The notes: generated by a model from the letters alone, not told the origin. DNA of 64,000 nucleotides from Escherichia coli (GCF_003018255.1 NZ_CP027440.1); one strand, 5' to 3'. Positions 29,509 through 51,904 are shown, numbered from the stretch's first letter. Made by a program: numbers and translations.

Positions 29509-30453
29509 ATGACAAACTTTACGACCAGCACGCCGCATGACGCATTATTTAAATCCTTTCTCACACACTCTGACACCGCGCGGGATTTTATGGAGATCCA
29601 CTTACCCAAAGATTTACGTGAACTGTGCGATCTCGATAGCTTAAAACTGGAATCCGCCAGCTTTGTCGATGAAAAATTGCGGGCGCTACATTCCGATATT
29701 CTGTGGTCGGTAAAGACCCGTGAAGGCGATGGCTATATTTATGTAGTGATTGAACATCAGAGCCGTGAGGATATTCATATGGCCTTTCGTCTGATGCGAT
29801 ATTCCATGGCGGTGATGCAGCGCCATATCGAACATGATAAACGCCGGCAGCTACCGCTGGTCATCCCGATGCTGTTTTATCACGGTAGCCGTAGTCCTTA
29901 TCCCTGGTCCCTGTGCTGGCTGGACGAATTTGCCGACCCGACTACCGCACGGAAGCTTTATACCGCCGCGTTCCCGCTGGTGGATATCACTGTCGTGCCA
30001 GACGACGAGATTGTGCAGCATCGCAGAGTCGCCCTGTTGGAGTTGATCCAAAAGCATATTCGCCAGCGCGATCTGATGGGGCTTATTGACCAACTGGTAG
30101 TATTACTGGTTACAGAGTGTGCTAATGACAGCCAGATAACTGCGCTGTTAAATTACATTTTACTGACTGGTGATGAAGCGCGTTTTAATGAGTTTATCAG
30201 TGAAATTACCCGTCGACTGCCACAACAAAGGGAGCGAATAATGACGATTGCAGAGCGAATTCATAATGATGGATGGCTGTTAGGGATGGAAAAGGGGAAA
30301 GAAGAAGGGGAACAACGCCTCCTTAGATTGCTTTTGCAGAACGGTGCGGATCCTGAATGGATACAACGATATACTGGACTTTCGGCAGAGCAAATGCAGG
30401 CATTAGAGCAACCCTTGCCTGAAAGCAAGCGCGATCCATGGATCGAGTACTAA
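29509..30453 (+). CDS. rpnD: Recombination-promoting nuclease RpnD (Rpn / transposase_31, PD-(D/E)XK family), apparently intact
   Basis: 314-aa uninterrupted ORF with the Rpn-family core ([21 protein letters not shown]). K-12 carries this locus as the split yjiP/yjiQ pseudogene pair, as I recall. Confidence 0.8.
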
Positions 30454-32283: not shown

Positions 32284-32448
32284 ATGGAATTTCACGAAAA
32301 CAAAGCTAAAGCACCGTTTATTGGACTTGTGCAACTCTGGCAGGCAGTGAGGCGTTGGCGGCGGCAAATGCAGGCCCGGCGGGTGTTACAGCAGATGAGT
32401 GATGAGCGGTTGAGGGATATTGGGTTACGCAGGGAGGATGTGGAGTGA
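32284..32448 (+). CDS. yjiS: DUF1127 small protein YjiS
   Basis: 54-aa ORF MEFHENKAKAPFIGLVQLWQAVRRWRRQMQARRVLQQMSDERLRDIGLRREDVE, found by hand (below the ORF-track length cutoff); recognised as YjiS. Confidence 0.75.
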   Translation: MEFHENKAKAPFIGLVQLWQAVRRWRRQMQARRVLQQMSDERLRDIGLRREDVE

Positions 32449-32544
32449 TGGGGCAGTTCGTCGCGGATAAACAGGATTTCTCTATAACCTCCACAAGGAA
32501 GTGGTTATTATTGCGAAATCATCGCTTCACGGAAAGACGTCAGA

Positions 32545-34638
32545 ATGAAAGCTACAGAAGCCCGCCTACTCGATTTTTTAAAACGTTCGCAGCAGTTTGT
32601 TATTCCCATTTATCAACGGACTTATTCATGGACAGAACAACAATGTCGGCAACTTTGGGACGACATCATTCGTGCCGGAAAGCGTGACGATATATCAGCG
32701 CATTTTATCGGTTCGGTTGTTTATATAGAGCAGGGATTGTATCAGGTTTCTGGTATTTCTCCGTTGCTGGTCATTGATGGTCAACAGCGGCTGACGACCG
32801 CAATGTTGCTGATTGAGGCTTTATCACGCCATCTTGGCGAAGACGAAGTTTTTGATGGCTTTTCAGCAATGAAATTGCGTAATTATTATTTACTCAATCC
32901 TTATGAGTCCGGCGAGAAAGGATTTAAATTACTGCTGACCGAGACTGATAAAGACAGTTTGCTGGCGTTAATAAAACAAAGACCAATGCCAGAAAACTAT
33001 TCCCATCGAATAATGGAAAACTTTACTTTCTTTGATGAACAAATTGCCAAACTCGGTGATGACTTGATCCCCTTATGTCGTGGGTTAGCAAAGTTATTAA
33101 TTGTCGATGTGGCGCTTAATCGTGGTCAGGATAATCCGCAACTGATTTTTGAAAGTATGAACTCCACCGGTAAGGCGTTAAGTCAGGCCGATCTGGTGCG
33201 CAATTTTATTCTGATGGGCCTCGAACCAGAGCATCAAACCCGGTTGTATGAAGATCACTGGCGTCCAATGGAAGTCGCTTTTGGTCAGCAAGGTTACAGC
33301 GAATATTTTGACAGCTTTATGCGTCATTATCTGACGGTAAAAACGGGGGAGATCCCTCGGACAGATGAAGTCTATGAGGCATTTAAACTCCATGCCCGCA
33401 GCCAGAGTGTTGCTGAAAAAGGCGTAGATCGGCTGGTTGAAGATATTCACATCTACGCGGAGTATTACTGTGCAATGGCATTGGGAAAAGAAAGTGACAA
33501 ATCGCTTGCTACGGCTTTTCAGGATTTGCGCGAGTTAAAGGTCGATGTGGCATATCCTTTCTTACTGGCGCTTTATCATGACTATAAAAATGGCGATTTG
33601 CCTCACGAAGATTTCCTGAGCATAATTCGTTTAATTGAATCTTATGTTTTCCGCCGTGCAGTATGTGCGATTCCGACGAATTCTCTTAACAAGACGTTTG
33701 CCACTTTTTATAAAGTCATTAATAAAGAAAAATATCTGGAAAGTATTCAGGTACATTTTCTGAATCTGCCTTCATATCGTCGTTTCCCCAACGATGATGA
33801 ATTTAAACGGGAATTAAAAGTTCGCGATCTCTATAACTTCCGTAGTCGCAGCTACTGGTTACGACGACTGGAAAACGATAAACGCAGAGAGCGCGTGGAA
33901 GAGTTTACGATTGAGCATATTATGCCGCAGAACGAAAATCTGTCGGCTAAATGGCGCGAAGAGTTGGGAAGCGACTGGCAGCGTGTGCATAAAGAATTGT
34001 TACATACGTTGGGGAATCTCACTTTAACGCGCTATAACTCCCGCTACAGTGACAGACCTTTCGCGGAAAAACGCGATATTGAAGACGGCTTTAAGCATAG
34101 CCCGCTTTATTTGAATATCGGTCTTGGACAGTGCGAAAAATGGGATGAAGCCGCCATTCACGCCCGAGCCGATCGTCTGGCCGATCTTGCGGTTCAGGTT
34201 TGGCAAGCGCCTGCTCTTCCTGAAGAGGTTTTAGCTGTTTATCGGGCGCAGCCGGAGAACAAAACCAGTTACAGCCTGAGTGATTATCCTTTTCTTGCTG
34301 ATGGTTCGCATAGCCGGGTGTTATTTGATCATCTTCGCGATGAAGTTATGCGCCTGGACGCAGGGATCACGCAGGAAGTATTGAAGCTCTATATTGCGTT
34401 TAAAGCTGAAACGAATTTTGTTGATGTTGTGCCGCAAAAAAGCCGACTGCGATTGTCGCTTAATATGCAGTTTCATGAACTGGTCGATCCGAAAGGTATT
34501 GCCAAAGATGTGACAAATGTTGGGCGATGGGGCAATGGCGATGTGGAAATTGGTTTCAGTGACCTCGCACAACTTCCTTACATTATGGGATTAATTCGTC
34601 AGGCATTTGAAAAACAGATGGAGAACGCGTTGGTATAA
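32545..34638 (+). CDS. DUF262 (ParB-like NTPase) + DUF1524 (His-Me finger nuclease) fusion protein; GmrSD-like putative type IV modification-dependent restriction endonuclease
   Basis: 697-aa ORF. N-terminal DUF262 hallmarks (FVIPIYQRTYSW and the DGQQR motif in LLVIDGQQRLTTAMLL); C-terminal DUF1524 hallmark (FTIEHIMPQN ... LGNLTLTRYN). Sits in the slot that holds yjiT/yjiV/mcrBC in K-12. Confidence 0.8.
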   Translation: MKATEARLLDFLKRSQQFVIPIYQRTYSWTEQQCRQLWDDIIRAGKRDDISAHFIGSVVYIEQGLYQVSGISPLLVIDGQQRLTTAMLLIEALSRHLGEDEVFDGFSAMKLRNYYLLNPYESGEKGFKLLLTETDKDSLLALIKQRPMPENYSHRIMENFTFFDEQIAKLGDDLIPLCRGLAKLLIVDVALNRGQDNPQLIFESMNSTGKALSQADLVRNFILMGLEPEHQTRLYEDHWRPMEVAFGQQGYSEYFDSFMRHYLTVKTGEIPRTDEVYEAFKLHARSQSVAEKGVDRLVEDIHIYAEYYCAMALGKESDKSLATAFQDLRELKVDVAYPFLLALYHDYKNGDLPHEDFLSIIRLIESYVFRRAVCAIPTNSLNKTFATFYKVINKEKYLESIQVHFLNLPSYRRFPNDDEFKRELKVRDLYNFRSRSYWLRRLENDKRRERVEEFTIEHIMPQNENLSAKWREELGSDWQRVHKELLHTLGNLTLTRYNSRYSDRPFAEKRDIEDGFKHSPLYLNIGLGQCEKWDEAAIHARADRLADLAVQVWQAPALPEEVLAVYRAQPENKTSYSLSDYPFLADGSHSRVLFDHLRDEVMRLDAGITQEVLKLYIAFKAETNFVDVVPQKSRLRLSLNMQFHELVDPKGIAKDVTNVGRWGNGDVEIGFSDLAQLPYIMGLIRQAFEKQMENALV

Positions 34639-34684
34639 CGTGGCGAATAATACCCGGTAGCACTGGCGCTACCGGGTCAATGTA

Positions 34685-35026
34685 TCAGGCGACTTTCTGT
34701 TTACCCGCAATCACCCCAATAAATTCCCGCACCTGCTTTTGTTTACGCGCCGACAGCTTGCACACCTGGCGCAGCGACTGCATTAGCTCGCTCTCTTCGG
34801 GGGCGGGTGGTTGGGCGGTGAGGACAATACAGCCTTCCATCACTTTGACAGCTATCGCCGTGCCGGTGGCAAAACCGGCGGCTTCCAGCCACTGACCTTT
34901 CAGGGTGATGGCGGGAATACGGCTGTAATCCGGGTAGCGACTCGCATAACTCACGGTTAATTGACGGTTATTTGCCGGGGAGACTTCTGCTTCGAACGGT
35001 TGTGCAATAGAATGCGTGTCAGTCAT
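34685..35026 (-). CDS. symE: SymE, SOS-induced toxin-like protein (type I toxin-antitoxin, AbrB-fold endoribonuclease)
   Basis: Start trimmed to [52 protein letters not shown] (113 aa); lies immediately upstream of hsdS as in K-12. Confidence 0.9.
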
Positions 35027-35100
35027 AACTGCTATTCCTTGAAAATAGTGATTGTGATGAGCGGTGCGGGTGTGTTGGCGCACATCCGCACCGCGCTAAA
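35015..35100 (+). ncRNA. symR: Putative SymR antisense sRNA (antitoxin) overlapping the symE start and 5' UTR; boundaries approximate
   Basis: Known arrangement: SymR is transcribed antisense across the symE translation start. A TAGAAT -10-like hexamer at 35008-35013 and a strong stem-loop at 35061-35094 are present on the plus strand. Ends were not mapped. Confidence 0.3.
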
Positions 35101-35103
35101 TAC

Positions 35104-35119
35104 CTGGATATATCATCAG
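35104..35119. promoter_or_regulatory. Putative LexA box (CTG-N10-CAG) upstream of symE
   Basis: CTGGATATATCATCAG, an AT-rich dyad of the CTG-N10-CAG type, about 80 bp upstream of the symE start; symE is a known SOS gene. Confidence 0.45.
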
Positions 35120-35246
35120 TAAATACAGGGAAAGTCCAGCTAAAAATTAATGAAAATAAGATAGAAGTTAGCGTGAAATATAATTTTTGGTGATGTGAAT
35201 AAAGCGGCTATTGAGCCGCTTTATTGGTTTTATGAGGGCGAGAAAA

Positions 35247-36983
35247 TTAGTTTATCGCCGCGTTAGTCAGTGCGTCTGCAAGGTGCAGTTGGGTTTGTTG
35301 GGCGGTTTTTATACGAGTTTTAAGCTTATCGCATAGTTCATGAAGTAAACCTACTTGTGAAAATATTCTATATTGTTCAGTTAATGGTGGGCATGGGAAT
35401 GAATACAACATTACACTATTTGCTGATAGGTTGGGTTGTGCTGAGCCATTATCAAAGCGGTAAATCTGTGAGCGCCCAAATGGACTGGTTAAATAATTAT
35501 AAATATACCCTCCCATTTCTGTGATAAATGGTCTAATGATCATTAGTGATGAGGCAATAGCTCCTGTTTCATAGGGGGTTACAAAGGCAGTTTTACCAAA
35601 AGTTGCTCCTCGTAGGCAATAAACCAAATCACCTTTTTGAATTTTCCCACTTCTTAATTCATTAAATTTTCCTTCGGTTATAAAATTCATTTCTGTAACC
35701 GTAAGTGTACCATTTTTTTCTATATGTCCAGTATTGATCCAAGGAATACCTTGAGAAACATACTCATTTTTATTGGGATAATTACTTCCACGATCGCCAT
35801 TTATAAACTCTGATGTTAAACCAAATTTACACCACTCCCACCCTTCCGGCAGTTCAAACGGTTTTTCCTCATTGCTAATTGGCGGTAGTGGTTTTTGTTT
35901 TTTTATTTTCCCTTCTTTCACCAGTTGAGCTTTTTCCTGCGCAATTCGTTTGAGCAGTTCAGAGGCGGGTTCGTCATTCGGATCCTGCGGCACAAGTTTA
36001 CCCATTACGGCCAGTTGAAGAATGGTCTGTTTTAACGCATCCACGCTGGCTTCGGTGGTAAATAGGGTGTCGAAATGCTCGCTAATACGCGCCCAGTTTT
36101 CAGCCAGTTCCTCGGCGTTTTGGCTGTCTGTAAGCGTTCCCAACAGGGTTTCAACCAGTTGCTGATGTGCGTCCAGACTGGTCAGGGATTGCTGTTCCAG
36201 TTGGTCGCAGAGAACTGTAAGTTCTCTGATTTTTCTGACAATTTGTTGTTGTTCATTTATAGGCGGTAAAGCGATTATCTGTTGTTCCATTTTTTCTTTA
36301 GTCATATGGAGCATTGCAATACCGTTACCTTGCGATTTTATTTTATCTGTAATGGATAAAAGAAAATCATGTATAAAATATTTGTTTGAGTACTCTTCTG
36401 CAAATAAATTTAATTTCCATATATGGTAGTGATAAATTACTTTTTCTCCTGTCCAAATGAATGGCCCAAAAGATGCGGACCAAGCGTATATTAAATCACC
36501 ATTATTTATATATTTGTTTTCGTCTAATTGGAGGTCAGAGTAATACCACTCATTTGATGTGAATAGATTACCAACACGCAGCAAAGGAGTGCCTGTTTGA
36601 AGCATTTCATGTTTTTTATATGCTCGACCGTTAATAACCTCCATGAGATCTGCAACCCGCACCCACTCCCATCCCTCCGGCAATTCAAACGGCTTCTCTT
36701 CCTCGCTAATTCCTGGCAGTGGTTTTTGCTTTTTAATTTTACCTTGCTTCACCAGCTCTGCTTTTTCCGCAGCAATACGCTTCAGCAGCTCCGACGCCGG
36801 TTCATCATTCGGATCCTGCGGCACCAGTTTACCGCGCACCGCCAGTTCCAGAATCAGCTCACGCAATTTCTTAATGCCATACAAATCAATTTTACCGGAA
36901 CTGCCGCGCCCGGCGGTGGAACGGGTTTGCAACGCCGAGGTCCAGGTTTCCATATGATCAACGATCAGCTTTTCCACACTCAT
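35247..36983 (-). CDS. hsdS: Type I restriction-modification specificity subunit HsdS (non-EcoKI allele; family-IB-like domain order)
   Basis: 578-aa ORF with two variable target-recognition regions. A conserved segment occurs twice, at the N-terminus and in the centre (GKLVPQDPNDEPASELLKRIA.EKA.LVK.GKIKKQKPLP.IS.EEKPFELPEGWEW). Its ATG overlaps the hsdM stop (ATGA). Confidence 0.88.
   Translation of the reverse strand: MSVEKLIVDHMETWTSALQTRSTAGRGSSGKIDLYGIKKLRELILELAVRGKLVPQDPNDEPASELLKRIAAEKAELVKQGKIKKQKPLPGISEEEKPFELPEGWEWVRVADLMEVINGRAYKKHEMLQTGTPLLRVGNLFTSNEWYYSDLQLDENKYINNGDLIYAWSASFGPFIWTGEKVIYHYHIWKLNLFAEEYSNKYFIHDFLLSITDKIKSQGNGIAMLHMTKEKMEQQIIALPPINEQQQIVRKIRELTVLCDQLEQQSLTSLDAHQQLVETLLGTLTDSQNAEELAENWARISEHFDTLFTTEASVDALKQTILQLAVMGKLVPQDPNDEPASELLKRIAQEKAQLVKEGKIKKQKPLPPISNEEKPFELPEGWEWCKFGLTSEFINGDRGSNYPNKNEYVSQGIPWINTGHIEKNGTLTVTEMNFITEGKFNELRSGKIQKGDLVYCLRGATFGKTAFVTPYETGAIASSLMIIRPFITEMGGYIYNYLTSPFGRSQIYRFDNGSAQPNLSANSVMLYSFPCPPLTEQYRIFSQVGLLHELCDKLKTRIKTAQQTQLHLADALTNAAIN
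35832..36020. repeat. Internal direct repeat of hsdS, copy 2 (central conserved region)
   Basis: About 190 bp of high DNA identity to 36663-36852, including the shared core TCATTCGGATCCTGCGGCAC. Confidence 0.8.
36663..36852. repeat. Internal direct repeat of hsdS, copy 1 (N-terminal conserved region)
   Basis: Direct repeat partner of 35832-36020. Confidence 0.8.
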
Positions 36984-38452
36984 CAGTTAACCTCCTTGCC
37001 AGACAGCGCAGCGCCAAGAATATCGCGCAGTTGATTACGCAGCGTCTGGATCTCCGCCTGCTGTTTTGCATACTGCGCTAACAGTTCGTCCGGGTCATGG
37101 CTGACGGTTTCCGCCTGATGTGGGTTTTTAATATCCAGATTGAAGTTACGCGCAATCACGTCATCAATGCTGACTTTCCACGCTTGCTCATTCTCGATGC
37201 GGCTGGCAAAACCATCGGCCTCGTTACCCCACCAGTCAATCTCCGCCTGAAACTCTTCGAACTTCATCGGCTTGGTTTTACTGTAATTTTTCACGCCCGC
37301 CGGATACGGATGCTCATAGAACCAAATCTCTTTGGTTGGCTGACCTTTGGTAAAAAACAACAGGTTGGTTTTAATGCCGGTATAGGGGTTAAACACACCA
37401 TTCGGTAAACGCACGATGGTATGCAGATTGCACTCTTCGGTAAGCAGCTTTTTGATTTTGGTTTTAACGCCTTCGCCAAATAGCGTGCCATCCGGCAATA
37501 CCACCGCCGCGCGACCGTTTTTCGCCAGTACTTCCACAATCAGTTGCAGAAACAGATCCGCTGTTTCGCGGGTTTGCATCTCTGCCGGAAAGTTCTTCTC
37601 AATACCGTCTTCTTCCGTGCCACCAAACGGCGGGTTGGTAACAATGACATCCAGTTGCTCATCCCAGGAGGAAAGCGGTTTGTTCAGGGTGTTGTCGTGA
37701 CGAATTTGTACAGGCACTTCAATGCCGTGCAGCAGCATATTGGTGGTCGCCAGCAGGTGCGGAAGCTGTTTTTTCTCGACACCGTGGATCTGTTGTTGCA
37801 GCGTCTGATGATCGGCGACGCTCTTCACGTATTTGTTCTTTACATGATCGAACGCGCAGGCAAGAAAACCGCCCGTACCGCAGGCCGGGTCCATAATGGA
37901 TTCGCCGAGTTTCGGATCAACGCGATCCACCATAAAGCGAGTGACGGCGCGTGGCGTATAGAATTCGCCAGCATTGCCCGCAGATTGCAGATCTTTAAGG
38001 ATCTGTTCGTAAATATCACCAAACAGATGGCGTTCGCTGGCGCTGGTAAAGTCAATTTCGTTCAGCTTGTTGATCACCTGGCGCAGTAGCGTACCGTTTT
38101 TCATATAGTTATAGGCATCGCTGAACGCCTGCTTCACCACGTAGCCGCGTGGGTTTTTATCGATAGGCGCAGTGAGGTTTTTCAACGCCGGGAACAGATC
38201 ATCATTAACGAATTCCAGCAGGGAATCACCGGTAATGCCCTGAGCGTTTGCGGCCCAACTGCGCCATAAATAACGCTGTGGGATCGGATATTGATAGTTA
38301 TCCTGCTCCAGTTCCAGCGCCTCTTCCTGGGCATCGAAGATTTTCAAAAACAGCAGCCAGGAGAGCTGACCGAGACGCTGCGCATCGCCATCCACACCGG
38401 CATCTTTGCGCATAATATCTTGTAATGATTTGATTACTGAACTGATAGACAT
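36983..38452 (-). CDS. hsdM: Type I restriction-modification N6-adenine DNA methyltransferase HsdM (non-EcoKI allele)
   Basis: SAM-binding motif I (DPACGTGGFL) and catalytic motif IV (VVTNPPFGG). Start trimmed to MSISSVIKSL (489 aa). Confidence 0.88.
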   Translation of the reverse strand: MSISSVIKSLQDIMRKDAGVDGDAQRLGQLSWLLFLKIFDAQEEALELEQDNYQYPIPQRYLWRSWAANAQGITGDSLLEFVNDDLFPALKNLTAPIDKNPRGYVVKQAFSDAYNYMKNGTLLRQVINKLNEIDFTSASERHLFGDIYEQILKDLQSAGNAGEFYTPRAVTRFMVDRVDPKLGESIMDPACGTGGFLACAFDHVKNKYVKSVADHQTLQQQIHGVEKKQLPHLLATTNMLLHGIEVPVQIRHDNTLNKPLSSWDEQLDVIVTNPPFGGTEEDGIEKNFPAEMQTRETADLFLQLIVEVLAKNGRAAVVLPDGTLFGEGVKTKIKKLLTEECNLHTIVRLPNGVFNPYTGIKTNLLFFTKGQPTKEIWFYEHPYPAGVKNYSKTKPMKFEEFQAEIDWWGNEADGFASRIENEQAWKVSIDDVIARNFNLDIKNPHQAETVSHDPDELLAQYAKQQAEIQTLRNQLRDILGAALSGKEVN

Positions 38453-38518
38453 GTTGTATTCCATGAAAAACAAGGCCTTCTGCAACATGATGGTTGCAGA
38501 AGGCGCAAAAGAGAGTTG

Positions 38519-40951
38519 TTAAGCAGAGCGGGGCGGTAATTGGTAGATTTCGTTTTCCAGCTCGCTGAGCGCCTGATTATACCCGTTACGGTCGCCAAAT
38601 CCGGTTTTAATAATCTCCGGTAAGGTGCCCATGCTGTCGAATGGTTTAAGTTTCAGCACCTGAATACTTTCGATCTCCTGTACGCCCGCATCGGCGTATT
38701 TATCCAGCAGATTATCGAGCACGGCTTGCGCTGCTTCAGAGTATTTTGTGAAGTAGTTCCGCTTGCGCACGTTCTCGGCGCGCTCTTTGCGGGTTAACGG
38801 CGGCTGACCATACACTACGTGGCAAAGCATGTCGAACGGGTCGAGATCTTTACCGACTTCTTCTGCCAGTACTTCCCAGATGATCCCCTGTTGTTCCAGC
38901 TCGTGAATGATCGCTTCTTTGCGATCGGCGTCCTGCCACTTGCGGGTAAAGTCATCCAGCGAGGCATATTCTTTGAGCAGTGTTTTGCGGGTGTAATCTT
39001 TAAAAGATTCGGTAACCAGTTTACCGTCGGCATCGTAATACTGAACACGCTGCGCAATAACGCCCACCGCTACACCGTTGACGTGAAACTTGCGGATTTT
39101 CTTCTCGTCTTCTTCCGGAAGTGGGCCGACATCATCGGTATCGGTAACCTGGTATGGTGGCGCAGGCGGTTCATCAACGCCTGTTACCTGTTCGTCGTCA
39201 TGTTCGCTGATTTCTTCGAGTTTCTCTTCAAAATCAGATTCTGGATCGGCGATATCCTCTGATGTGGTATCCATGACTTTTTCGGGAATGCCATCGAAAC
39301 GCTCATCGGCAAACAGTTCGGTGGCTTTTTTAAAGTCGAGGATGGTAAACCAGAGTTTGCCGTAACGTTCGTCGATGCGTGTACCACGACCGATAATTTG
39401 CTTGAATTTGGTCATCGACTGGATGTTCTGGTCCAGTACTACCAGTTTGCAGGTTTTAGCATCCACACCAGTGGTCATCAGCTCTGAAGTGGTCGCGATA
39501 ACCGGGTACGCTTTTTTCGGGTTGATGAAGTTATCCAACTGAGCTTTGCCAATTTCATCATCGCCGGTGATTTTCATGACGTATTTGTCGTTCTTTTTCA
39601 CCTGCTCCGGGTTGAGATTCACCAGGGCGCGGCGCATACGTTCTGCATGATCGATGTCGTTACAGAAGACGATGGTTTTATCCATCGGGTTGGTGCGCTT
39701 GAGGTAGTCGGTAATGGTTCTGGCAACCAGTTCTGTCCGTTCGTCGATTACCATCGTGCGATCGAAATCTTTCTGGTTATAGATACGATCGTCGATCACT
39801 TCGCCGTTTAAGTCAGTTTGCCCTTTGGTTGGGCGCCAGCCTTGCAGATCAACATCAATATCAACACGGACAACTTTATAAGGGGCGAGGAAGCCGTCTT
39901 CGATCCCTTCTTTTAGCGAGTAGACGTAAACCGGATCGCCGAAGTAATCCGTGCTGGAGACTTCATGCGTCTCTTTTGGCGTGGCGGTTAAGCCAATTTG
40001 GGTGGCGGAACTGAAATAATCAAGGATCTCTCGCCAGGCGCTGTCTTCGGATGCGCTGCCGCGATGGCATTCGTCGATCACGATCAGATCGAAGAAATCT
40101 GGTGCGACTTGTTTAAACGCTTTTTGGTCTTCCTCCGGGCCAGTTATAGCCTGATAGAGCGCGAGGTGAATTTCATAAGCGGGATCAATGGTGCGTCCGC
40201 TGACTTTGGTCATTGCCGTACCAAATGGCTGGAAATCATTATTTTTGGTTTGGTCGACCAGAATGTTGCGATCGGCAAGGAACAAAATGCGTTTTTTATT
40301 TTTTGATTTCCACAGGCGCCAGATGATCTGGAATGCGGTATAGGTTTTCCCTGTTCCGGTCGCCATGACCAGCAGAACGCGGTTTTGCCCGTTGGAGACG
40401 GCTTCAATGGTTTTGTTGATTGCCTGAAGCTGGTAATAACGAGGCGATTTGCCGCTGCCATCGTCGTAATAGTCCTGAGTAATCACCGGAAGCTGAGCTT
40501 GTGTGTATCCTTTCCAGAGGCAGAATTTTTGCCAGAGTTCAGCGGGGGAGGGGAAGTCATCCAGCGTTATTTGCTTTTCAAGGCATTCACCTTCAGCTGC
40601 GGTGGCATCGCGGAAGATAAAGCCATCACCGTTGGTGGCAAAAACAAAAGGAACGTCCAGCAGGCGCGCATATTCAATGCCCTGTTGCATCCCTTTGCCA
40701 ATTTCATGTTTGTTGGCTTTTGCTTCAATCACGGCTAAGGGAATGCCTGGTTTGTGATACAGCACGATGTCAGCAGATTTTACCGTTCTGCGTGCCGCAA
40801 CTTTACCACGTACGATGACTTTACCGTTCCGGAGTTTGACCTCCTGTCTGATTTGCGTTGTGTTGTCCCAGCCTGCATTGAGAATGGCTGGCATAACGCA
40901 TTTGGTAATGATGTCTGCTTCCGTCAGGTTACTTAGGTTCAGTTCCGCCAT
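38519..40951 (-). CDS. hsdR: Type I restriction-modification endonuclease/translocase HsdR (810 aa, non-EcoKI; family-IB-like)
   Basis: N-terminal PD-(D/E)XK nuclease region ([19 protein letters not shown]), SF2 helicase Walker A (MATGTGKT) and motif II (DECHR). Much shorter than the roughly 1170-aa EcoKI HsdR. Confidence 0.88.
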
Positions 40952-41091
40952 GGGGTGTTCTCATCTAAATGCGATGCGTAAATTCTACACAGAAAAATAG
41001 ATGAATTCATCTGTTCAAAGAGTATTATCAGCGTTAAGTCACTGTTTTAAAGGTATTCTTGAGTTTCATCAATAGCTGGATAAGGATTCAT

Positions 41092-42060
41092 ATGGAGAAT
41101 GTTCGGTTCTTGCAAGGAGTGAAACAATATTTTTGTACTAAGGCATTAGATGTCATTCTGCTAATTTATCTACTCCTTGGTTTTATACTTCTCCCTTATA
41201 AATATCTGTGGAAAGATATTATTTTATCTCTGTACTTTGTTGGTATTCTTCTTTATGCATTAGTGGAAGAAAATCGCATTGCAGAATATATGGGGTATTT
41301 TGTTAAGTTCAGTAATAAAAACAGGTTGAATAGTTGTGCTGCCTGGTGTTCACTTATTGCATGGTTTATATTTTTGTTTTTTGTGCTTTCAATTAATATT
41401 TTTCCAGTCAGTGCCTCTGTATATATTTTTAGTGCTTTTTCATTATTTGTTTTTCTGGGGGGTATTTTTATTATATTAGAGTTAGAGTTTAAAGAAAATA
41501 AAAAATTAATGATTATTAGGTCTGTGACTATAGCAGTCATGCCAATTATATATTTATTCACAAGTAGTTATGCTTCCAGTTTATTTTTAAGTTTGAGTAA
41601 TCTAAACATTACGCTAACTCCATGGGTTGAGTATTTCTGGAAAGGGATGGTTTTTATGTTGCTTTTCTTCATGTTAATGCAACTTATTATCTATTTTGCT
41701 TTTTTAACTCTGGGGACTAAATTAAGTGTGTATAGGTTGTTTATACTTGCCGGAGCATTTGTAGTATCTACTTTTTTAGTGGCTTTTGCTTTAAAAAATG
41801 TAGAAGGTATTTCGTACTACGTTTTAAAAAGCACCATAGATTTTGAATGGCGTAATCAGATTAAATGTGGCCAGTTGAATATTTCACGTTCGAATGAAAA
41901 GTATTTTGGGTTTAATACTGATAAATATACTGTATTTTATTCCGGCAGAGATGGTAAATGGGGCTTTGATGAGTTGAAATGTAAGAAAGGTTCTGACAGG
42001 AGAGATGCATATTCTATTGAGAATGTCTCAGAATATAACGTGCCTGGATGGCTGAAATAA
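41092..42060 (+). CDS. Hypothetical multi-pass membrane protein with C-terminal soluble domain, strongly AT-rich (foreign composition); occupies the position of mrr in K-12
   Basis: ORF-track frame 41059-42060 (TTG start); trimmed to ATG at 41092, preceded by AAGGA. At least six hydrophobic helices (e.g. ILLIYLLLGFILLP, IAWFIFLFFVLSINIF, MVFMLLFFMLMQLIIYFAFLTL), then a charged C-terminal tail of about 80 aa. I recognise no catalytic motif. Confidence 0.6.
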   Translation: MENVRFLQGVKQYFCTKALDVILLIYLLLGFILLPYKYLWKDIILSLYFVGILLYALVEENRIAEYMGYFVKFSNKNRLNSCAAWCSLIAWFIFLFFVLSINIFPVSASVYIFSAFSLFVFLGGIFIILELEFKENKKLMIIRSVTIAVMPIIYLFTSSYASSLFLSLSNLNITLTPWVEYFWKGMVFMLLFFMLMQLIIYFAFLTLGTKLSVYRLFILAGAFVVSTFLVAFALKNVEGISYYVLKSTIDFEWRNQIKCGQLNISRSNEKYFGFNTDKYTVFYSGRDGKWGFDELKCKKGSDRRDAYSIENVSEYNVPGWLK

Positions 42061-42377
42061 GTCATCTTTATAAATTATATAGTAAAGGTTCTGGTCATAA
42101 ACGAGCATAGTTAAACATAAACGGGGCATACTCCACACACTTGATGTGCAGCAAGAAGTTGAACTCATGGCTTTGGTTAATAAATCTGACGAAGATATTG
42201 ATTACAGCGACATTCCTGCGTCTGGTAGCGAAGCATGGGCTGACGCCACACGCGGCAATTTTTTGCCAGATCCAGGTATTCACGCGCAATAAAACTTAGC
42301 GGAGGGGAGCACGTCGTTCTGTTTCCCCCTCACTGCTAAGTGGGGCATTGGGTTGCTTTACACTCAACCTTTTACGA

Positions 42378-43334
42378 TTATTTCCTCAACCCCGCAAACG
42401 CCGCCCGAATCTTATCCTCCGGCAGCTGAATCCCGATAAACACCATTGTGCTATGCGGTGTTTCATCGCCCCACGGGCGGTCCCAGTCGGCGCTGTAGAG
42501 GCGTTGGACGCCCTGGAACAGCAGGCGGCTAGGTTCGCCGTCAATCCACAGCATCCCTTTGTAACGCAGTAGTTTATCCGCCGATTCCAGCAGCAGGTTT
42601 TCCATCACGCGGGAAACTTCGCTGATATCTACCGGGTAATCCAGTTCCACCACAATCGACGAAATATCGTTTTGTTTATCCGCGATAAAGTGGAAACGCG
42701 GTTTGGTGCTGACGACGTTTTCTTCCAGCATAAAACCGTTGGTGTTGAACAACAGGCCCAGGTCGATGTCACCGTGGGTGACGGTGTAGACCGGTGCGCG
42801 GGCGTTGATGCGCGCCAGGCGTTCACGCAGTTTCTCTACTTCGCCTGCGACGTCGGTTTTAGTCAGCAGAATACGGTCAGCGTAGCCCACCTGGGACTGG
42901 GCGATGGTGAACTGGTTCATCTGCTCATCGGCATGTACCGCATCCACCAGCGCAATCACGCCATCCAGCAGGTAACGCTGGCATAAAATCTCATGGGAGA
43001 AAAAGGTCTGAATAATCGGGCCGGGATCGGCCATGCCGGTGCATTCAATGACCAGACGGTCGAACTGAATATTGCCCTTGTCGAGATTGTCCAGCAGGTC
43101 GAGTAGCGCGTCCTCCAGCTCGTTGGAGCGCGAACAGCAGATGCAGCCGTTGGTCAGCGTTTTGATCTGCGTGGCGCGGTCGCCAATCAGTTGATCATCA
43201 ACGGAGACTTCGCCGAATTCGTTTTCAATCACGGCAATTTTGTAGCCGTGCTGTTCATTAAGAATATGGCGCAGCAGGGTGGTTTTGCCCGCGCCTAAAA
43301 AACCGGTGAGTAGGGTAACTGCAATCGGGTTCAT
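42378..43334 (-). CDS. yjiA: CobW/HypB-family (COG0523) metal-binding GTPase YjiA
   Basis: Start trimmed to MNPIAVTLLTGFLGAGKTTLL (P-loop) with the CxCC motif (GCICCS); 318 aa. Confidence 0.92.
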   Translation of the reverse strand: MNPIAVTLLTGFLGAGKTTLLRHILNEQHGYKIAVIENEFGEVSVDDQLIGDRATQIKTLTNGCICCSRSNELEDALLDLLDNLDKGNIQFDRLVIECTGMADPGPIIQTFFSHEILCQRYLLDGVIALVDAVHADEQMNQFTIAQSQVGYADRILLTKTDVAGEVEKLRERLARINARAPVYTVTHGDIDLGLLFNTNGFMLEENVVSTKPRFHFIADKQNDISSIVVELDYPVDISEVSRVMENLLLESADKLLRYKGMLWIDGEPSRLLFQGVQRLYSADWDRPWGDETPHSTMVFIGIQLPEDKIRAAFAGLRK

Positions 43335-45748: not shown

Positions 45749-46015
45749 AGTAAAACCTGGCATGTATTGATTAATAGTTGGCCGAAGCCGTTCTAGGTTT
45801 GCGTTGCGTTTGAGGAGGTAAATTGACCGCTATCCTGCAGTGATGTTGCCAGAGTTACGCGCGCGTAAAGTAAGGTAAATAACTGAGTGGTTATTTTAGG
45901 GACGTAAGCGGTCAGGAATGGCGGTGAGCGGTTGGGCAAGAATTATTCGTCGGGTGGATATGTGATTGAGATCACAATAAAAATGCCCCTTCGATAATTA
46001 ACCGAAGGGGCGTTC

Positions 46016-47236
46016 TTAGAAGAGAGTGTCTAATTCTGCCAGTACGTTGTAGTCGTCATCAGTCAATAACAACGTTTTCCATTTGTCGAAGGTCAGGCAC
46101 GGATGCGATGTGCCAAACACCAGAATATCCCCCACTTGCACGTCGCTATTAGCTGACAGTTGCAACATGCAGTGCTGATCCATAATACCTGTACTGCGAA
46201 TCGCCTGTGGATCAAATGCCAGTGATTTGCCGTTGCGGTAGTGGGCGACTGGTTGCGGCAGTCCGGCGTCGAAGGCGCAATCACGCTTACCAAAATTTAC
46301 CACCGCACGATCAGCTTCCGGCACCGATTGCACCATGGCGACCAGTTCCAGCGCAGATGTGAGATCGCCTGCCAGATCGCAGGCCACAGGATCACGGGCA
46401 AGCAACTGTTGTTGTGCCGCGTCGTAGATCCCGGTGTCGTGAGTGATGTAGCAGCCAGGGCGAATAACAATGCGGCAGTTATCAGGCTTTTCTGCCGCCA
46501 GCCAGATATTGCACACCACGTCATACCAGACCGTGCCTGCTCCGGTGAGAATAAACTCGCCATCAACCAGACTTGCCATATCACAGGCCAGTTGTGCGGC
46601 ATCCCGCAGCAGAGCTTCTACCTGCGGTTGTGGATCGTCACCGTGTAAAACGCCTTCATATAACTCAAGCCCCCGCAGGCGTAACCCCGGTAATTGGGCT
46701 GCCTGTTTAGCCAGTGTCAGTGCGGCATCCCTTGAGCGGCAACCACAGCGCCCGCCGGGGACACCCAACTCAATCATCACGTTCAGTGTCTGTTGCTGAC
46801 TGGCAAAAAAGGCAGACAAAGCGCGGGCGTTCTCAATGCTGTCGATACAGCAGATAAAATCGACCGTCGGGTAATGTCGTTGCAACTGGGCAATCAACTG
46901 CATATTCGCCTTGCCGACCAGCTGGTTAACCATCAGCACTCGCTGAATACCGCTCGCCATTGCCGCACCAGCCTGCCATGCGCTACCGACACCTATTGCC
47001 CAGGCGCCTGCCGCCTGCTGCGCCTGAAAAATCCACGGCGTCATGGTGGTTTTACCGTGCGGTGCCAGCGAAACGCCGCGCGCGTCAGCATAACGCTGCA
47101 TCCACGTAATGTTGTTCTCCAGGGCCTGCTTTTTAATGATCGCGGCAGGTAAACAGACATCTTCGGCAAGGAGATTTGCGGGCATTTGCATCAGGGCAGA
47201 TTTATGGGGAACCAGAGGTTCTGAGTGGTATTTCAT
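46016..47236 (-). CDS. DSD1-family PLP enzyme (alanine-racemase-fold N-domain; D-serine dehydratase / D-threonine aldolase-like)
   Basis: 406-aa ORF; N-terminal region LPAAIIKKQALENNITWMQRYADARGVSLAPHGKTTM resembles the lysine-containing PLP site (RPH-K-T-H-K type) of DSD1/YGL196W enzymes. True start among M1/M16/M18 is uncertain. Confidence 0.65.
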   Translation of the reverse strand: MKYHSEPLVPHKSALMQMPANLLAEDVCLPAAIIKKQALENNITWMQRYADARGVSLAPHGKTTMTPWIFQAQQAAGAWAIGVGSAWQAGAAMASGIQRVLMVNQLVGKANMQLIAQLQRHYPTVDFICCIDSIENARALSAFFASQQQTLNVMIELGVPGGRCGCRSRDAALTLAKQAAQLPGLRLRGLELYEGVLHGDDPQPQVEALLRDAAQLACDMASLVDGEFILTGAGTVWYDVVCNIWLAAEKPDNCRIVIRPGCYITHDTGIYDAAQQQLLARDPVACDLAGDLTSALELVAMVQSVPEADRAVVNFGKRDCAFDAGLPQPVAHYRNGKSLAFDPQAIRSTGIMDQHCMLQLSANSDVQVGDILVFGTSHPCLTFDKWKTLLLTDDDYNVLAELDTLF

Positions 47237-47286
47237 AACATTTACCTTTTAAGTTTTTCACCGTATCGGATGTGAGTATCACTTGT

Positions 47287-47313
47287 AACTAAATGAAATA
47301 TAAATATTTAGTT
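47287..47313. promoter_or_regulatory. Perfect 8-bp inverted repeat (AACTAAAT-N11-ATTTAGTT) in the divergent promoter region; candidate operator
   Basis: Read directly from the sequence; sits in the AT-rich gap between the DSD1-like gene and the D-aminoacylase operon. Confidence 0.4.
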
Positions 47314-47427
47314 TATTTATCTTATTATTTATGAATAAAAGTATCATAAAATCATCTGGGTTTTGCGTAGTTTTCCACTGTTTTTCGTCCTTGTAAATGG
47401 TTAACTTGTCACCATTGCAGAAATGGA

Positions 47428-48879
47428 GTGACGAACATGCAGGTTGACTGGTTAATCAAAAATGTGACCGTTATCGACGGTAGCGGCGGCCCTGAATTTC
47501 GCGGTGACGTGGCAATAACAGGTGATCGGATTGTCGATATTGCCCCTGCGCTTAACGTTACGGCGCAGCAGGTCATTGACGGGGAAGGGCGGGTGCTGGC
47601 ACCCGGGTTTATCGACGTTCATACCCATGACGATATCAACGTTATTCGCATCCCGGAATATCTGCCAAAGATCAGCCAGGGGATCACTACGGTGATTGTC
47701 GGTAACTGCGGGATTAGTGCGGCGTCGGCGAAAATGAAAGGTGAAGTTCCTGACCCGATGAATCTGTTGGGGGAAGCAGAGCACTTTATTTATCCTACCG
47801 TTGAAAGCTATGCCCAGGCAGTGGAAGCAGCCAGGCCGTCACTGAACGTTGGCACGCTGATTGGTCATACGGCGCTGCGTAATAACCATATGGACGACCT
47901 GTTTCGCCCGGCGACGGTGGATGAAATTGCCGCTATGCGTGCCGACTTACGTCTGGCGTTGAGTCAGGGGGCGCTGGGGTTAAGTTCCGGGCTGGCCTAT
48001 GCAACGGCATTTCAGGCGACTACCGAAGAAGTCATGGCGCTGGCGGAAGAATTAGCCGGTGAGAAGGGCGTTTATACCACCCATCTGCGTTCTGAATTTG
48101 AACCGATTCTCGATGCCCTGGATGAGGCGTTTCGTATTGGGCGTCATGGCAAAGTGCCTGTCGTGGTTTCCCACCATAAATGTGCCGGGGCGAAAAACTG
48201 GGGGCGGACAAAAGAAACGTTGGCCTTTTTTGACCAAATGCGTCAACACCAGGAAATTGGCTGCGATGTCTACCCTTACTCAGCCAGCTCTTCAACGCTG
48301 GATCTCAAACAAGTCACCGACGAATTCGATATTGTGATCACCTGGTCACAAACACATCCGCAGCAGGCCGGGAAAACACTGGCGCAAATCGCCATCGACT
48401 GGCAGATGAGTATGCTGGAGGCCGCGAAGCTGCTAATGCCTGCCGGGGCTATCTATTACAACATGGACGAGCGCGACGTCCGCCGAGTGTTGAGTTATCC
48501 GGTCAGTATGATTGGCTCTGACGGCCTGCCCAATGATCCCATGCCGCATCCACGTTTATGGGGCGCCTTCCCTCGCGTGCTGGGCCACTATTGCCGTGAT
48601 GAAGGCTTATTCCCACTGACCACGGCTATCCACAAAATGACCGGGCTTTCTGCCAGCCGTTTTCGCCTGCCCCAGCGTGGACTGGTGAAAGTCGGTTATT
48701 TTGCGGACCTGGTGTTGTTCGATCCACAAACCATTCGTGATGTTGCCAGCTTTTCTGATCCCAAACGCCCGGCAGATGGCATTGAGGCGGTGATGGTGAA
48801 CGGCGTTATGAGCTATGGTCCCGATAAACATATTACAGGCCGTGCGGGACGCTTCCTGCGCCGGCAGACCTCACATTAA
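47428..48879 (+). CDS. N-acyl-D-amino-acid deacylase (D-aminoacylase) family amidohydrolase
   Basis: 483-aa ORF; N-terminus DWLIKNVTVIDGSGGPEFRGDVAITGDRIVDIAPAL...APGFIDVHTHDD is typical of metal-dependent D-aminoacylases. Start is M1 or M4. Confidence 0.75.
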   Translation: MTNMQVDWLIKNVTVIDGSGGPEFRGDVAITGDRIVDIAPALNVTAQQVIDGEGRVLAPGFIDVHTHDDINVIRIPEYLPKISQGITTVIVGNCGISAASAKMKGEVPDPMNLLGEAEHFIYPTVESYAQAVEAARPSLNVGTLIGHTALRNNHMDDLFRPATVDEIAAMRADLRLALSQGALGLSSGLAYATAFQATTEEVMALAEELAGEKGVYTTHLRSEFEPILDALDEAFRIGRHGKVPVVVSHHKCAGAKNWGRTKETLAFFDQMRQHQEIGCDVYPYSASSSTLDLKQVTDEFDIVITWSQTHPQQAGKTLAQIAIDWQMSMLEAAKLLMPAGAIYYNMDERDVRRVLSYPVSMIGSDGLPNDPMPHPRLWGAFPRVLGHYCRDEGLFPLTTAIHKMTGLSASRFRLPQRGLVKVGYFADLVLFDPQTIRDVASFSDPKRPADGIEAVMVNGVMSYGPDKHITGRAGRFLRRQTSH

Positions 48880-48882
48880 GGA

Positions 48883-49278
48883 GTGAATATGAGCATTAAA
48901 CGTTACGGTACGGAAGGTGGAACAGGCACTGGCGGGCAGCATTTGCCTTTTGCCAGGGCGGTTGAGGCGGGCGGCTGGCTGTACGTCTCCGGGCAAACAC
49001 CCATGAAAAACGGTGAAGTGGTAGAAGGCGGAATCGTTGAACAGTCACGACTGGCGATCCAAAACTGTGTCGACATCATGACTGAAGCCGGTTATAGCCT
49101 GGCGGATGTGGTTCACGTGAAAGTGATCCTGACCGACGCCCGCTATTTCCAGTCATTTAATAAAGTATTCAGAGAATTTTTTGGCGAGAATCCGCCTGCA
49201 CGTATTTGTTGTGTGGCTGATCTGGTTGTCGATTGTAAAGTCGAAGTCGATGTGACCTGTTATAACGCGACCCGCTAA
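48883..49278 (+). CDS. RidA/YjgF/TdcF-family reactive enamine/imine deaminase
   Basis: 131-aa ORF (...GGWLYVSGQTPMKNGEVVEGG...ARICCVADL...), characteristic of the RidA fold; starts 4 nt after the aminoacylase stop. Confidence 0.75.
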   Translation: MNMSIKRYGTEGGTGTGGQHLPFARAVEAGGWLYVSGQTPMKNGEVVEGGIVEQSRLAIQNCVDIMTEAGYSLADVVHVKVILTDARYFQSFNKVFREFFGENPPARICCVADLVVDCKVEVDVTCYNATR

Positions 49279-49380
49279 TAAATTTAAGAATTAAAAAAAC
49301 AGACCGCAATTGAGTGCTGAATACATTCAGCACTCCGGGAACTCTTACATTAATTTCTCTCTACTGGCAGGATGTGAATT

Positions 49381-50850
49381 ATGAACAGTCATATCTTTTT
49401 AGTCGGCTTTATTATTTATGCCATCGCCATGATTTGGCTTGGTTGGTTTGTTTCTCGTAATCAGAAAAGCGGAGAAGATTTTCTGCTGGGCGGGCGTTCG
49501 CTGCCGCTGTTTCTGACGCTGGGGTCAACCGTTGCCACGATGGTTGGCACGGGTTCCAGTATGGGGGCAGTGGGCTTTGGCTACAGCAATGGCTGGGCCG
49601 GAATGCTTTATGGCGTCGGTGGAGCCGTAGGTATATTGCTGGTGGCGTGGCTGTTTGCACCGGTACGTAAATTACGTTTTATGACCATGAGTGAAGAACT
49701 CTCTTATTATACTGGCGGTAGTCATTTAATTAAAAATATTGTCGGCCTGATGATATTTATTGCCTCTATTGGCTGGCTGGGGGCGCATATATTAGGTGGA
49801 AGTATGTATCTTGCCTGGGCGACGGGTATTGATCTTACTGTGGCAAAATTAATTATCGCCTTAGCTTTTGCGATTTATGTTATTATCGGCGGTTATTCGG
49901 CGGTAGTGTGGACAGATACTATTCAGGCCCTAATTCTGTTCTTTGGCTTTATATTAATGGCTATTCTTGCCGTTGTTCACGTTGGCGGCTGGAGTGCGAT
50001 TGAGCAGGCGATGGACCCAAAAGCGATGAGCCTGTTTGCGATTGATAAAATGGGCGTGCTGCCTGCGCTTTCGCTGGCACTGGTTATTGGCGTAGGTGTG
50101 CTGGCAACACCGTCTTATCGCCAGCGTATTTACTCGGGTAAAGATGTTCCCTCTGTACGCCGTTCGTTTGTTATTACTGGGGTGTTATATCTGTTCTTCT
50201 CGATTTTGCCTGCCATTATCGGCATGGCGGCGTTCACCATGAACCCAAATCTGGAAAACAGCAACTACGCCTTCTTGTTCGCGACCAGTTTCTTACCTGC
50301 CATTCTTGGGCTGGTGGTGCTGATTGCCGGGCTTTCAGCCACCATGTCTTCTGCCAGCTCCGATGCCATCGCGGCGGTGGCGATTATGATGCGCGACGTC
50401 TACACCATGATTACCGGCAGAATGCCGCCGGAGGACAAGGCCATTACTTACTCACGCTGGATGTTGACCTTTGTTATTGGCCTGGCGCTGGTCTTTGCTC
50501 TGACCTCTAATGACATCATCAGCTACATTACCAAAATGATTTCGATGCTGATGTCCGGGCTGTTTATCTGCTCGATTCTCGGTCGCTTCTGGCTACGCTT
50601 TAACTGGCAGGGCGCGCTGGCGGTGTTAGTGAGCGGTATGGTGATGTCAATTGTGGTGCTGATGAATGCCGACTGGCTGGCTTACTGGGGTAACCCGTGT
50701 ATTCCGTCAGTGCTGGGCAGCCTGGTCGCTGGCGTACTGGTGACGTTGGTAACGCCAGCAAGTCAGGTCAGCCGGGAAGAAGCTTTGGCGATTATCACCA
50801 ATGAGCGTGAAAACCAGAGTGTCGTGATCACCAAACCTGAAGAAGCATAA
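49381..50850 (+). CDS. Sodium:solute symporter family (SSF) transporter
   Basis: 489-aa polytopic membrane protein with PutP/PanF-like helices; third gene of the plus-strand operon. Confidence 0.75.
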   Translation: MNSHIFLVGFIIYAIAMIWLGWFVSRNQKSGEDFLLGGRSLPLFLTLGSTVATMVGTGSSMGAVGFGYSNGWAGMLYGVGGAVGILLVAWLFAPVRKLRFMTMSEELSYYTGGSHLIKNIVGLMIFIASIGWLGAHILGGSMYLAWATGIDLTVAKLIIALAFAIYVIIGGYSAVVWTDTIQALILFFGFILMAILAVVHVGGWSAIEQAMDPKAMSLFAIDKMGVLPALSLALVIGVGVLATPSYRQRIYSGKDVPSVRRSFVITGVLYLFFSILPAIIGMAAFTMNPNLENSNYAFLFATSFLPAILGLVVLIAGLSATMSSASSDAIAAVAIMMRDVYTMITGRMPPEDKAITYSRWMLTFVIGLALVFALTSNDIISYITKMISMLMSGLFICSILGRFWLRFNWQGALAVLVSGMVMSIVVLMNADWLAYWGNPCIPSVLGSLVAGVLVTLVTPASQVSREEALAIITNERENQSVVITKPEEA

Positions 50851-50859
50851 CCAACAATG

Positions 50860-51765: not shown

Positions 51766-51904
51766 AAACTGCCGCTATAGAGTGTGACCCTCACAAAAAA
51801 CGCAAGTTTGCTGCAACAAAAGCAGTGCCGACGCTTTTCCACAGCATAAAGTTTTCCACCACCAGGCCGACAACCAGTGTATCTGTCTAGTGGAAAGAGA
51901 AACC

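Follow-up and report, generated by a model that had tools for sequence, protein, structure and literature searches.

The yjiS-yjiA interval of an Escherichia coli chromosome as a probable type IB haplotype of the immigration control region

The immigration control region (ICR) of Escherichia coli, which corresponds to defence hotspot 36, was described as a replaceable cassette located between the genes yjiS and yjiA (Sibley & Raleigh 2004, summarised in PMC2481252 and PMC3874165). In a 2025 EcoSal review from the Raleigh group (PMC12707154), 9,040 enterobacterial genomes were surveyed and a recognisable ICR was found in 8,424 of them; the occupants included type IB restriction-modification systems (11%), GmrSD (12%), Mrr (22%) and McrBC (6%), and symE/symR and brnAT were also listed. 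In ICRs that lack McrBC, GmrSD homologues adjacent to type I systems were reported previously, including one in avian pathogenic E. coli (APEC) O1 with 24% identity to Eco94GmrSD (He et al. 2015, PMC4437046). Type I domains were found to be the most enriched neighbours of GmrSD, with statistical support for the co-localisation (Machnicka et al. 2015, PMC4619093). The main text of the hotspot paper of Hochhauser (2023) does not mention the locus by gene name. Here, we describe the interval 32284-42377 of a 64,000-nucleotide stretch of E. coli DNA (NZ_CP027440.1, assembly GCF_003018255.1; the whole stretch is referred to below as the window), in which a GmrSD-family nuclease gene, the symE/symR toxin-antitoxin pair, a type IB hsdRMS system and a gene for an orphan membrane protein lie between yjiS and yjiA.

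In this work, comparison of gene content, nucleotide breakpoints and population frequencies was used to assign this segment. We conclude, with a probability of roughly 85%, that it is a type IB haplotype of the E. coli ICR composed of independently exchanged modules. The site, its anchors (yjiR/yjiS and yjiA) and its cassette behaviour are those of the published island (Sibley & Raleigh 2004; PMC12707154), for which type IB hsdRMS genes, a GmrSD homologue, symE/symR and a trace of brnA have all been reported, and nothing essential differs. An earlier interpretation made from the DNA alone, the sequence-only reading, had identified the locus as a hotspot of defence-gene exchange in which both type IV systems of K-12 are replaced by different cargo. 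These conclusions are correct but were already known (PMC2481252, PMC3874165, PMC4437046, PMC12707154, PMC4619093). The region as a whole is a textbook defence island found again in one of its common states, which in itself matters little, and the residual novelty is confined to the orphan membrane protein.

Exchangeable cassettes between yjiS and yjiA

The interval begins at base 1 of yjiS and ends one base short of the yjiA stop codon, and YjiR, encoded beyond yjiS, is 99.6% identical to the K-12 protein; the bounds of the ICR, yjiS on the yjiR side and yjiA on the other, are thus both in place. Searches of Pfam, NCBIfam, Rfam and PADLOC bore out the gene content proposed from sequence, namely a GmrSD-like nuclease, symE/symR, a type I system other than EcoKI and an AT-rich membrane protein. 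All genes of that list were recovered, but the list had overlooked a remnant of brnA next to yjiA. The K-12 proteins McrB, McrC, Mrr and YjiT gave no tblastn match at E<=1e-3 across the whole 64-kb window, in agreement with the claim that neither mcrBC nor mrr is present and that both K-12 type IV systems are replaced.

The borders of the replaced segments were located by alignment against K-12 and other ICR haplotypes. Nucleotide homology to K-12 is limited to positions up to 32453, to the symE/symR block at 34689-35147 (93% identity) and to positions from 42378 onwards. The conserved symE/symR anchor, lying between stretches that diverge from K-12, thus separates two variable segments. In the comparison with the type IB haplotype of O157 and CFT073, homology extends through hsdR to 40962 and is found again from 42378, so that the slot cassette comprises positions 40963-42377 and includes the region upstream of hsdR. 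The closest genome (L001) is identical over 32284-38724, and its 43 differing sites all fall within 38725-42373, 30 of them in 41379-42194; this distribution, with 6.4 kb of identity on the left and every difference beyond 38724, suggests that recombination took place recently with a breakpoint within hsdR. Synonymous divergence (dS) across alleles is 0.19 in the membrane gene versus 0.013 in the adjacent hsdR, which indicates that the membrane gene carries an old polymorphism.

Alternative cassettes at the same site support its description as an exchange hotspot. K-12 has yjiT-yjiV-mcrCB and EcoKI-mrr at the ICR, O157 and CFT073 have a type IB system with a gene for a DUF262-HNH protein, and FDAARGOS_1289 has GmrSD with a type IA system and mrr. 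In a sample of 5,426 complete E. coli genomes, the GmrSD-DUF5655 gene is present in 1,360, including O157:H7 and CFT073, type IB hsdR in 945, K-12-type mrr in 944, the DUF262-HNH gene that occupies the slot in O157:H7 EDL933 and CFT073 in 574, the membrane gene in 408 and the junction of hsdR with the membrane gene in 399. At least 80% of the 10.1-kb interval is covered in 450 genomes of this sample, and the whole 10.1 kb is matched at 99.5-99.6% by six complete genomes. Together, 399 and 574 account for approximately all genomes with type IB hsdR, so that in type IB haplotypes the hsdR-yjiA slot is occupied mainly by one of two alleles, the membrane protein (~41%) or the DUF262-HNH nuclease (~59%). 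This division into two main alleles, together with the inclusion of the hsdR upstream region in the replaced segment, is a useful result of the comparison. The membrane-protein version is carried by the O26:H11 and O111:H11 lineages of enterohaemorrhagic E. coli. The GmrSD, HsdS, HsdM, HsdR and membrane proteins, all five of those looked up, have identical sequences in public data. The possibility that this gene set is simply a common and characterised haplotype is therefore largely realised: the same order occurs in about 400 of the 5,426 genomes, whereas for the GmrSD-DUF5655 protein and the membrane protein no experimental assignment was found in the literature.

It had also been suggested that the block acts together, and in its strongest form this explanation treats the whole block as a single co-operating system, with mutual dependence among type I enzyme, GmrSD-like nuclease and membrane protein, the last being an effector triggered by the nucleases. 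The physical clustering of the genes and the conservation of their order in about 400 E. coli genomes would fit such a system. However, the same GmrSD gene is co-resident with type IA hsdRMS and mrr, with type IB and DUF262-HNH, or with type IB and the membrane protein, and at least 415 genomes have GmrSD but lack this type IB hsdR (1,360 versus 945). Conversely, cassettes of Klebsiella and Salmonella combine the membrane protein and a type IB system without GmrSD, more distant homologues of the membrane protein have no adjacent type I system, and near symE/symR each half of the island has recombination breakpoints of its own. Assortment of the left cassette is independent of that of the right one. 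Joint action of the block is thus unsupported, and its interpretation as one co-operating system, which is largely refuted by this assortment, appears very improbable.

We propose instead that the modules are swapped independently by homologous recombination at four anchors (yjiS, the symE/symR block, the 5' end of hsdR and yjiA) and that they would protect the cell in layers, by mechanistically independent routes. By analogy with the characterised enzymes GmrSD and BrxU, the GmrSD-family enzyme would cut incoming DNA with modified bases, taking the role that McrBC has in K-12. The SymE toxin, paired with the SymR antisense RNA, would form a second module. The EcoAI-family system is predicted to methylate a bipartite target set by the HsdS allele and, following translocation driven by ATP, to cut DNA that lacks this methylation. 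In place of the mrr of K-12, the slot carries an inner-membrane protein predicted to have seven helices and a small C-terminal domain, probably periplasmic and disulfide-bonded; behind it lies a non-functional fragment of brnA. In this view, the membrane protein is old cargo of both the type IB cassette and P4-like integrative islands, and our best guess is that it could act as a single gene in exclusion at the envelope or in abortive infection. Within this scheme, the identities of the genes, their intact motifs, the population frequencies, the breakpoints and the independent assortment are direct observations, whereas the GmrSD substrate, the role of DUF5655 and the topology and function of the membrane protein are predictions. 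The features of the interval are listed in Table 1.

Table 1. Features between and including the anchors yjiS and yjiA, in coordinates of the window
Feature	Coordinates	Strand	Evidence
yjiS (DUF1127), left anchor	32284..32448	+	95% identity to K-12 YjiS; RefSeq neighbours annotate yjiS
GmrSD-family (DUF262 + DUF1524 His-Me finger) nuclease with C-terminal DUF5655, 697 aa, intact	32545..34638	+	Pfam, PADLOC, motifs
symE, toxin of the SymE/SymR type I system	34685..35026	-	NCBIfam NF010128; 93% identity to K-12 SymE
symR, antisense RNA antitoxin, overlaps 5' end of symE	35021..35097	+	Rfam RF01809, full length 1-77
hsdS, type IB specificity subunit, 578 aa	35247..36983	-	PADLOC Specificity_I PDLC03179, 2.3e-267
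hsdM, type IB N6-adenine methyltransferase, 489 aa	36983..38452	-	PADLOC MTase_I; motifs
hsdR, EcoAI/FtnUII-family (type IB) restriction subunit, 810 aa	38519..40951	-	NF046051; motifs
Divergent intergenic region between hsdR and membrane gene, 140 nt	40952..41091	.	Within replaceable slot cassette 40963-42377
Orphan AT-rich inner-membrane protein, 322 aa, about 7 predicted transmembrane helices	41092..42060	+	Homologue alignment; matches no Pfam, PADLOC or NCBIfam family
brnA antitoxin remnant, 192 nt, N-terminal half, without brnT	42101..42292	+	Identity to Klebsiella BrnA
yjiA (CobW-family GTPase), right anchor	42378..43334	-	98% identity to K-12 YjiA

The GmrSD-DUF5655 nuclease, symE/symR and the type IB system

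The closest described relatives of the nuclease, Eco94GmrSD, BrxU, SspE and DndI, share with it a DUF262 ParB-like NTPase domain (DGQQR) and a DUF1524 His-Me finger (EHxxP). In the window protein, the N-terminal DUF262 (GmrS) domain contains D78GQQR and the C-terminal DUF1524 (GmrD) domain contains E457HIMP, both as expected for the GmrSD family. The corresponding Pfam matches are GmrSD_N (9.4e-35) and GmrSD_C (1.6e-26), followed by DUF5655 (3.4e-13), and the best PADLOC families are 'Orf5' (PDLC02693, 3.8e-223), HEC-06 and mREase_IV. Like the GmrSD-family type IV enzymes, the protein is a single chain encoded by a stand-alone gene in a defence island beside a type I system. It is a distant relative of these enzymes, with structural matches in the PDB limited to DndI (9JFL, E=5.9e-13) and SspE (E=3.3e-6), and it differs from the characterised members of the family in an extra, highly conserved C-terminal DUF5655 that they lack. 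No dnd or ssp genes are adjacent. The ratio of nonsynonymous to synonymous divergence (dN/dS) of the gene is 0.06, which corresponds to strong purifying selection.

By analogy with the described family members, the GmrSD-DUF5655 enzyme is most likely a stand-alone modification-dependent (type IV) nuclease. This assignment has to be weighed against several points. DndI and SspE, the closest relatives with solved structures, belong to the DUF262-HNH proteins and recognise phosphorothioate, not base modifications; no experiment showing that the GmrSD-DUF5655 subfamily is modification-dependent was found in the literature; and no described system could be matched to the PADLOC family name 'Orf5'. 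The DUF5655 domain, for which a literature search gave no useful description, was modelled with a predicted local distance difference test (pLDDT) score of 86.8 as a YdhG/YjbR-like alpha-beta fold with a weaker likeness to the C-terminal, DNA-binding domain of phage T4 MotA, and the model suggests that it may serve as an additional DNA-binding module.

In every genome inspected, the RefSeq/PGAP annotation splits this open reading frame (ORF) into a partial 'DUF262 pseudogene' and a 387-aa coding sequence (CDS) for a 'GmrSD domain' protein. Translation of the ORF in two of these genomes (L001, 4262-6355; L002, 3262-5355) encountered no stop codon or frameshift, so the split is an annotation artefact. 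The idea that GmrSD is broken in close relatives, as the RefSeq 'pseudogene' label implies, was accordingly rejected, the translated ORF being intact and identical. An enzyme carried by a quarter of complete E. coli genomes is thus mis-annotated as broken in RefSeq, which is of practical use; if the split is general, about 1,360 complete genomes carrying the gene are affected.

The symE/symR pair was identified with both of its components. SymE scores 224.6 bits against NF010128 (cut-off 132), and symR, which overlaps the symE start at 35026, scores 91.7 bits against RF01809 (gathering score 61). A simple pattern search for LexA boxes returned none near symE, and the number of matches was no higher than expected by chance.

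The type I system was assigned to the EcoAI family. HsdR scores 1191.8 bits against the EcoAI/FtnUII equivalog NF046051 (cut-off 550) and 216.6 against the EcoKI-type model NF008521, under the cut-off of 729, and its identity to EcoKI HsdR is 27%. The hsdR, hsdM and hsdS ORFs are all intact and form a complete type IB set. The conserved motifs are likewise intact, both in HsdR (the PD-(D/E)xK-like IEAK75, the Walker A motif GTGKT199, DECH293 and motif VI QIIGRGTR518) and in HsdM (DPACGTGGF188, for S-adenosylmethionine, and NPPF273). The classical criteria of the type IB family are subunit complementation and antibody cross-reaction with EcoAI (PMC2481252). The window system resembles EcoAI, EcoEI and EcoAO83I in its subunit sizes (HsdR 810 aa, HsdM 489 aa, HsdS ~580 aa), in the duplicated conserved repeat of HsdS and in its location in the ICR. 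It differs from the alleles of O157:H7, CFT073 and O26:H11 in the target-recognition regions of HsdS, and therefore its recognition sequence is probably different from theirs. For two parts of hsdS, ~35345-35821 and ~36234-36657, neither the O157 nor the CFT073 allele contains a matching nucleotide sequence. The exact HsdS protein occurs on 569 public contigs, and HsdM is 97% identical to its Klebsiella orthologue.

The orphan membrane protein in the hsdR-yjiA slot

In K-12, and in O157:H7 and CFT073, the slot bounded by the start of hsdR and the stop of yjiA is occupied by Mrr or the DUF262-HNH protein, respectively. These are soluble nucleases, whereas the window occupant is a polytopic membrane protein with no recognisable nuclease or other domain. 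The published ICR descriptions that were available do not mention a 322-aa membrane protein in the mrr slot. The GC content of its ORF is 0.31, against ~0.49 in the neighbouring genes. Its start is most likely the ATG at 41092, not the TTG at 41059: the former is annotated in RefSeq, agrees with the N-termini of homologues and fits an AAGGA Shine-Dalgarno sequence. No matches were obtained in Pfam, PADLOC or NCBIfam, and a search of PHROGs returned a marginal match (E=0.0076) to a generic 'membrane protein' family. In the alignment of homologues, about seven hydrophobic helices are followed by a C-terminal domain of ~70 residues, the most conserved part of the protein, which is beta-rich and contains an invariant YFGFNTDKYT run (motif YFGFNTDKYTV) and two conserved cysteines; the positive-inside rule places this domain probably in the periplasm. 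Foldseek matches of the AlphaFold2 model in AFDB50 were all uncharacterised, and the best match in the PDB had E=0.39; given the moderate pLDDT of the model (67.8), these fold negatives are weak evidence.

Homologues of the protein are restricted and rare. A word-indexed search returned 43 relatives, all from Enterobacterales and all annotated as 'hypothetical', and a profile search of 1.84 billion representatives gave 41 clusters with one architecture and no informative domain fusions. Among 100,044 species genomes, five contain a copy, a number too small for statistics of co-occurrence. Many truncated copies occur in public data. In tblastn searches the protein was absent from phage records, and plasmid records gave one match, to a 373-kb 'plasmid' record that is suspected to be chromosomal. 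The candidate role of a prophage-borne superinfection-exclusion gene was dropped on the grounds of the missing phage match and the suspect nature of the sole plasmid match.

The genomic context of the gene in E. coli is nearly constant, as 399 of its 408 copies adjoin type IB hsdR. A homologue with 42% identity, present in Klebsiella michiganensis and Salmonella enterica, is likewise divergent to a type IB hsdR, without GmrSD; HsdM of these loci is 91-97% and HsdR 81-92% identical to the window proteins, and the intergenic region is of near-equal length with a mean column identity of 88%. Such a linkage could be expected if the membrane protein were a dedicated accessory of type IB enzymes, which might position the enzyme at the inner membrane or control it there and would be co-regulated with hsdR from a shared divergent promoter region. 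The conservation of arrangement and intergenic length in three genera despite 42% protein identity, and the inclusion of the hsdR upstream region in the slot cassette, point in the same direction. A scan of the slot for promoters and terminators performed no better than on shuffled sequence, and the intergenic region contains one weak promoter-like site on the minus strand, at chance level. The accessory role is at odds with the ~574 E. coli genomes, including EDL933 and CFT073, in which an hsdR of ~99% nucleotide identity is accompanied by DUF262-HNH instead. Moreover, most type IB loci outside Enterobacteriaceae lack the family, as seen from the five loci in 100,044 species genomes, and homologues are found in places where type IB systems are lacking.

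One of these other contexts is that of a 30-34%-identical clade of 315-aa proteins from Pectobacterium, Serratia, Enterobacter, Lonsdalea and one unclassified Enterobacteriaceae isolate (loci L008, L014, L028, L029 and L031, at ~8700-10950). Its genes are located ~50 nt downstream of a P4-like integrase that is 91-96% identical among the loci, usually next to lptG, without a type I system. The islands also carry primase and AlpA genes, and in this clade the membrane gene seems to be a fixed component of the island and not variable cargo. The genes called in the Pectobacterium and Serratia islands include toxin-antitoxin pairs, a TIR-domain protein, an OLD-type nuclease and an Mrr-type nuclease. 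In Kosakonia, the homologue follows a truncated integrase and is itself followed by mrr, symE, type IA hsdSMR and a Zorya-like gene, so that its neighbour is a type IA and not a type IB system. Two further distant homologues are on contigs shorter than 2 kb, where context is uninformative. The integrase-linked, defence-island and type-I-free contexts indicate that the membrane gene is cargo of mobile elements and defence islands and has no obligatory link to type I systems. The variant in which the protein is a membrane partner of type IB enzymes in particular is less likely, and we consider the dedicated accessory role unlikely.

We tentatively propose that the membrane protein belongs to an unrecognised single-gene family of phage exclusion, abortive infection or other defence in Enterobacterales, although this is doubtful on the present evidence. 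Homology supports no function for the protein. One homologue is flanked by housekeeping genes, for formate dehydrogenase and allantoin, and has no defence neighbours, and the ICR itself is documented to hold non-defence genes. In addition, the 399 of 408 linkage to hsdR and the shared conserved intergenic region leave some room for functional coupling to the restriction system.

Some of the same observations would be explained if the protein had no role in immunity and were neutral cargo or cargo with a function other than defence, such as an envelope protein that came with horizontally acquired DNA and is silenced by H-NS; for this reading we see about even odds. The lack of a PADLOC, Pfam, NCBIfam or informative fold match, the homologue in the housekeeping context, the many truncated public copies and the absence from phage records are all consistent with such cargo. 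However, dN/dS of ~0.3 with an ORF that is intact across alleles at dS 0.19 indicates purifying selection, and the C-terminal motif is strongly conserved across genera. The position of the gene in the very slot where other haplotypes have Mrr or a DUF262-HNH nuclease, and its location in other genera adjacent to integrases, beside toxin-antitoxin and defence genes, also speak against such cargo. As a candidate for a defence screen, the membrane protein is cheap and well defined.

The brnA remnant and neighbouring loci

The fragment of brnA between the membrane gene and yjiA is recognisable over its first 54 residues, which are 57% identical to the N-terminus of Klebsiella BrnA (54 aa, E=1e-21). 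Its start codon is changed from ATG to ACG at 42102 in the window. No Pfam BrnA domain, C-terminal domain or brnT was found, so that the fragment does not constitute a BrnT/BrnA system, and the upstream gap of 40 nt leaves no room for brnT. The fragment is a recombination scar, not a gene; in RefSeq it is labelled 'antitoxin' or 'hypothetical'.

Several observations were made on related loci. In E. coli N9 (L017, 8288-9202), an IS1A element is located between symE and the brnA remnant, and hsdSMR and the membrane gene are missing; this locus, which retains the same GmrSD gene, is an IS1-associated deletion derivative of the same haplotype. The DUF262-HNH slot gene is a single 550-aa CDS in CFT073 (L016, 10711-12363), whereas its annotation in O157:H7 EDL933 (L015, 10711-12362) consists of two CDSs (94 and 452 aa), and it may be disrupted there. 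A 10.5-kb contig labelled 'MAG: Bacillota bacterium' (JAEWTL010000091.1, L027) contains the whole type IB haplotype of the ICR, with proteins 89-99.8% identical to those of the window, and is almost certainly Escherichia DNA placed in the wrong metagenome-assembled genome.

Two further differences were noted outside the interval. Beside the ICR, an Rpn-family (rpnD) ORF at 29509-30453 (+) of the window has an intact 314-aa frame, whereas K-12 has an rpnD pseudogene and the closest genome a frameshifted copy; Rpn proteins have been linked in the literature to RecA-independent recombination at the ICR locus. On the other side, a 5.9-kb insertion between btsT and tsr (45931-51845), not present in K-12, carries, as annotated in a near-identical genome, genes for an amino acid deaminase, an N-acyl-D-amino-acid deacylase, a RidA protein, a sodium:solute symporter and a MurR/RpiR regulator, and looks like a small island for D-amino-acid catabolism.

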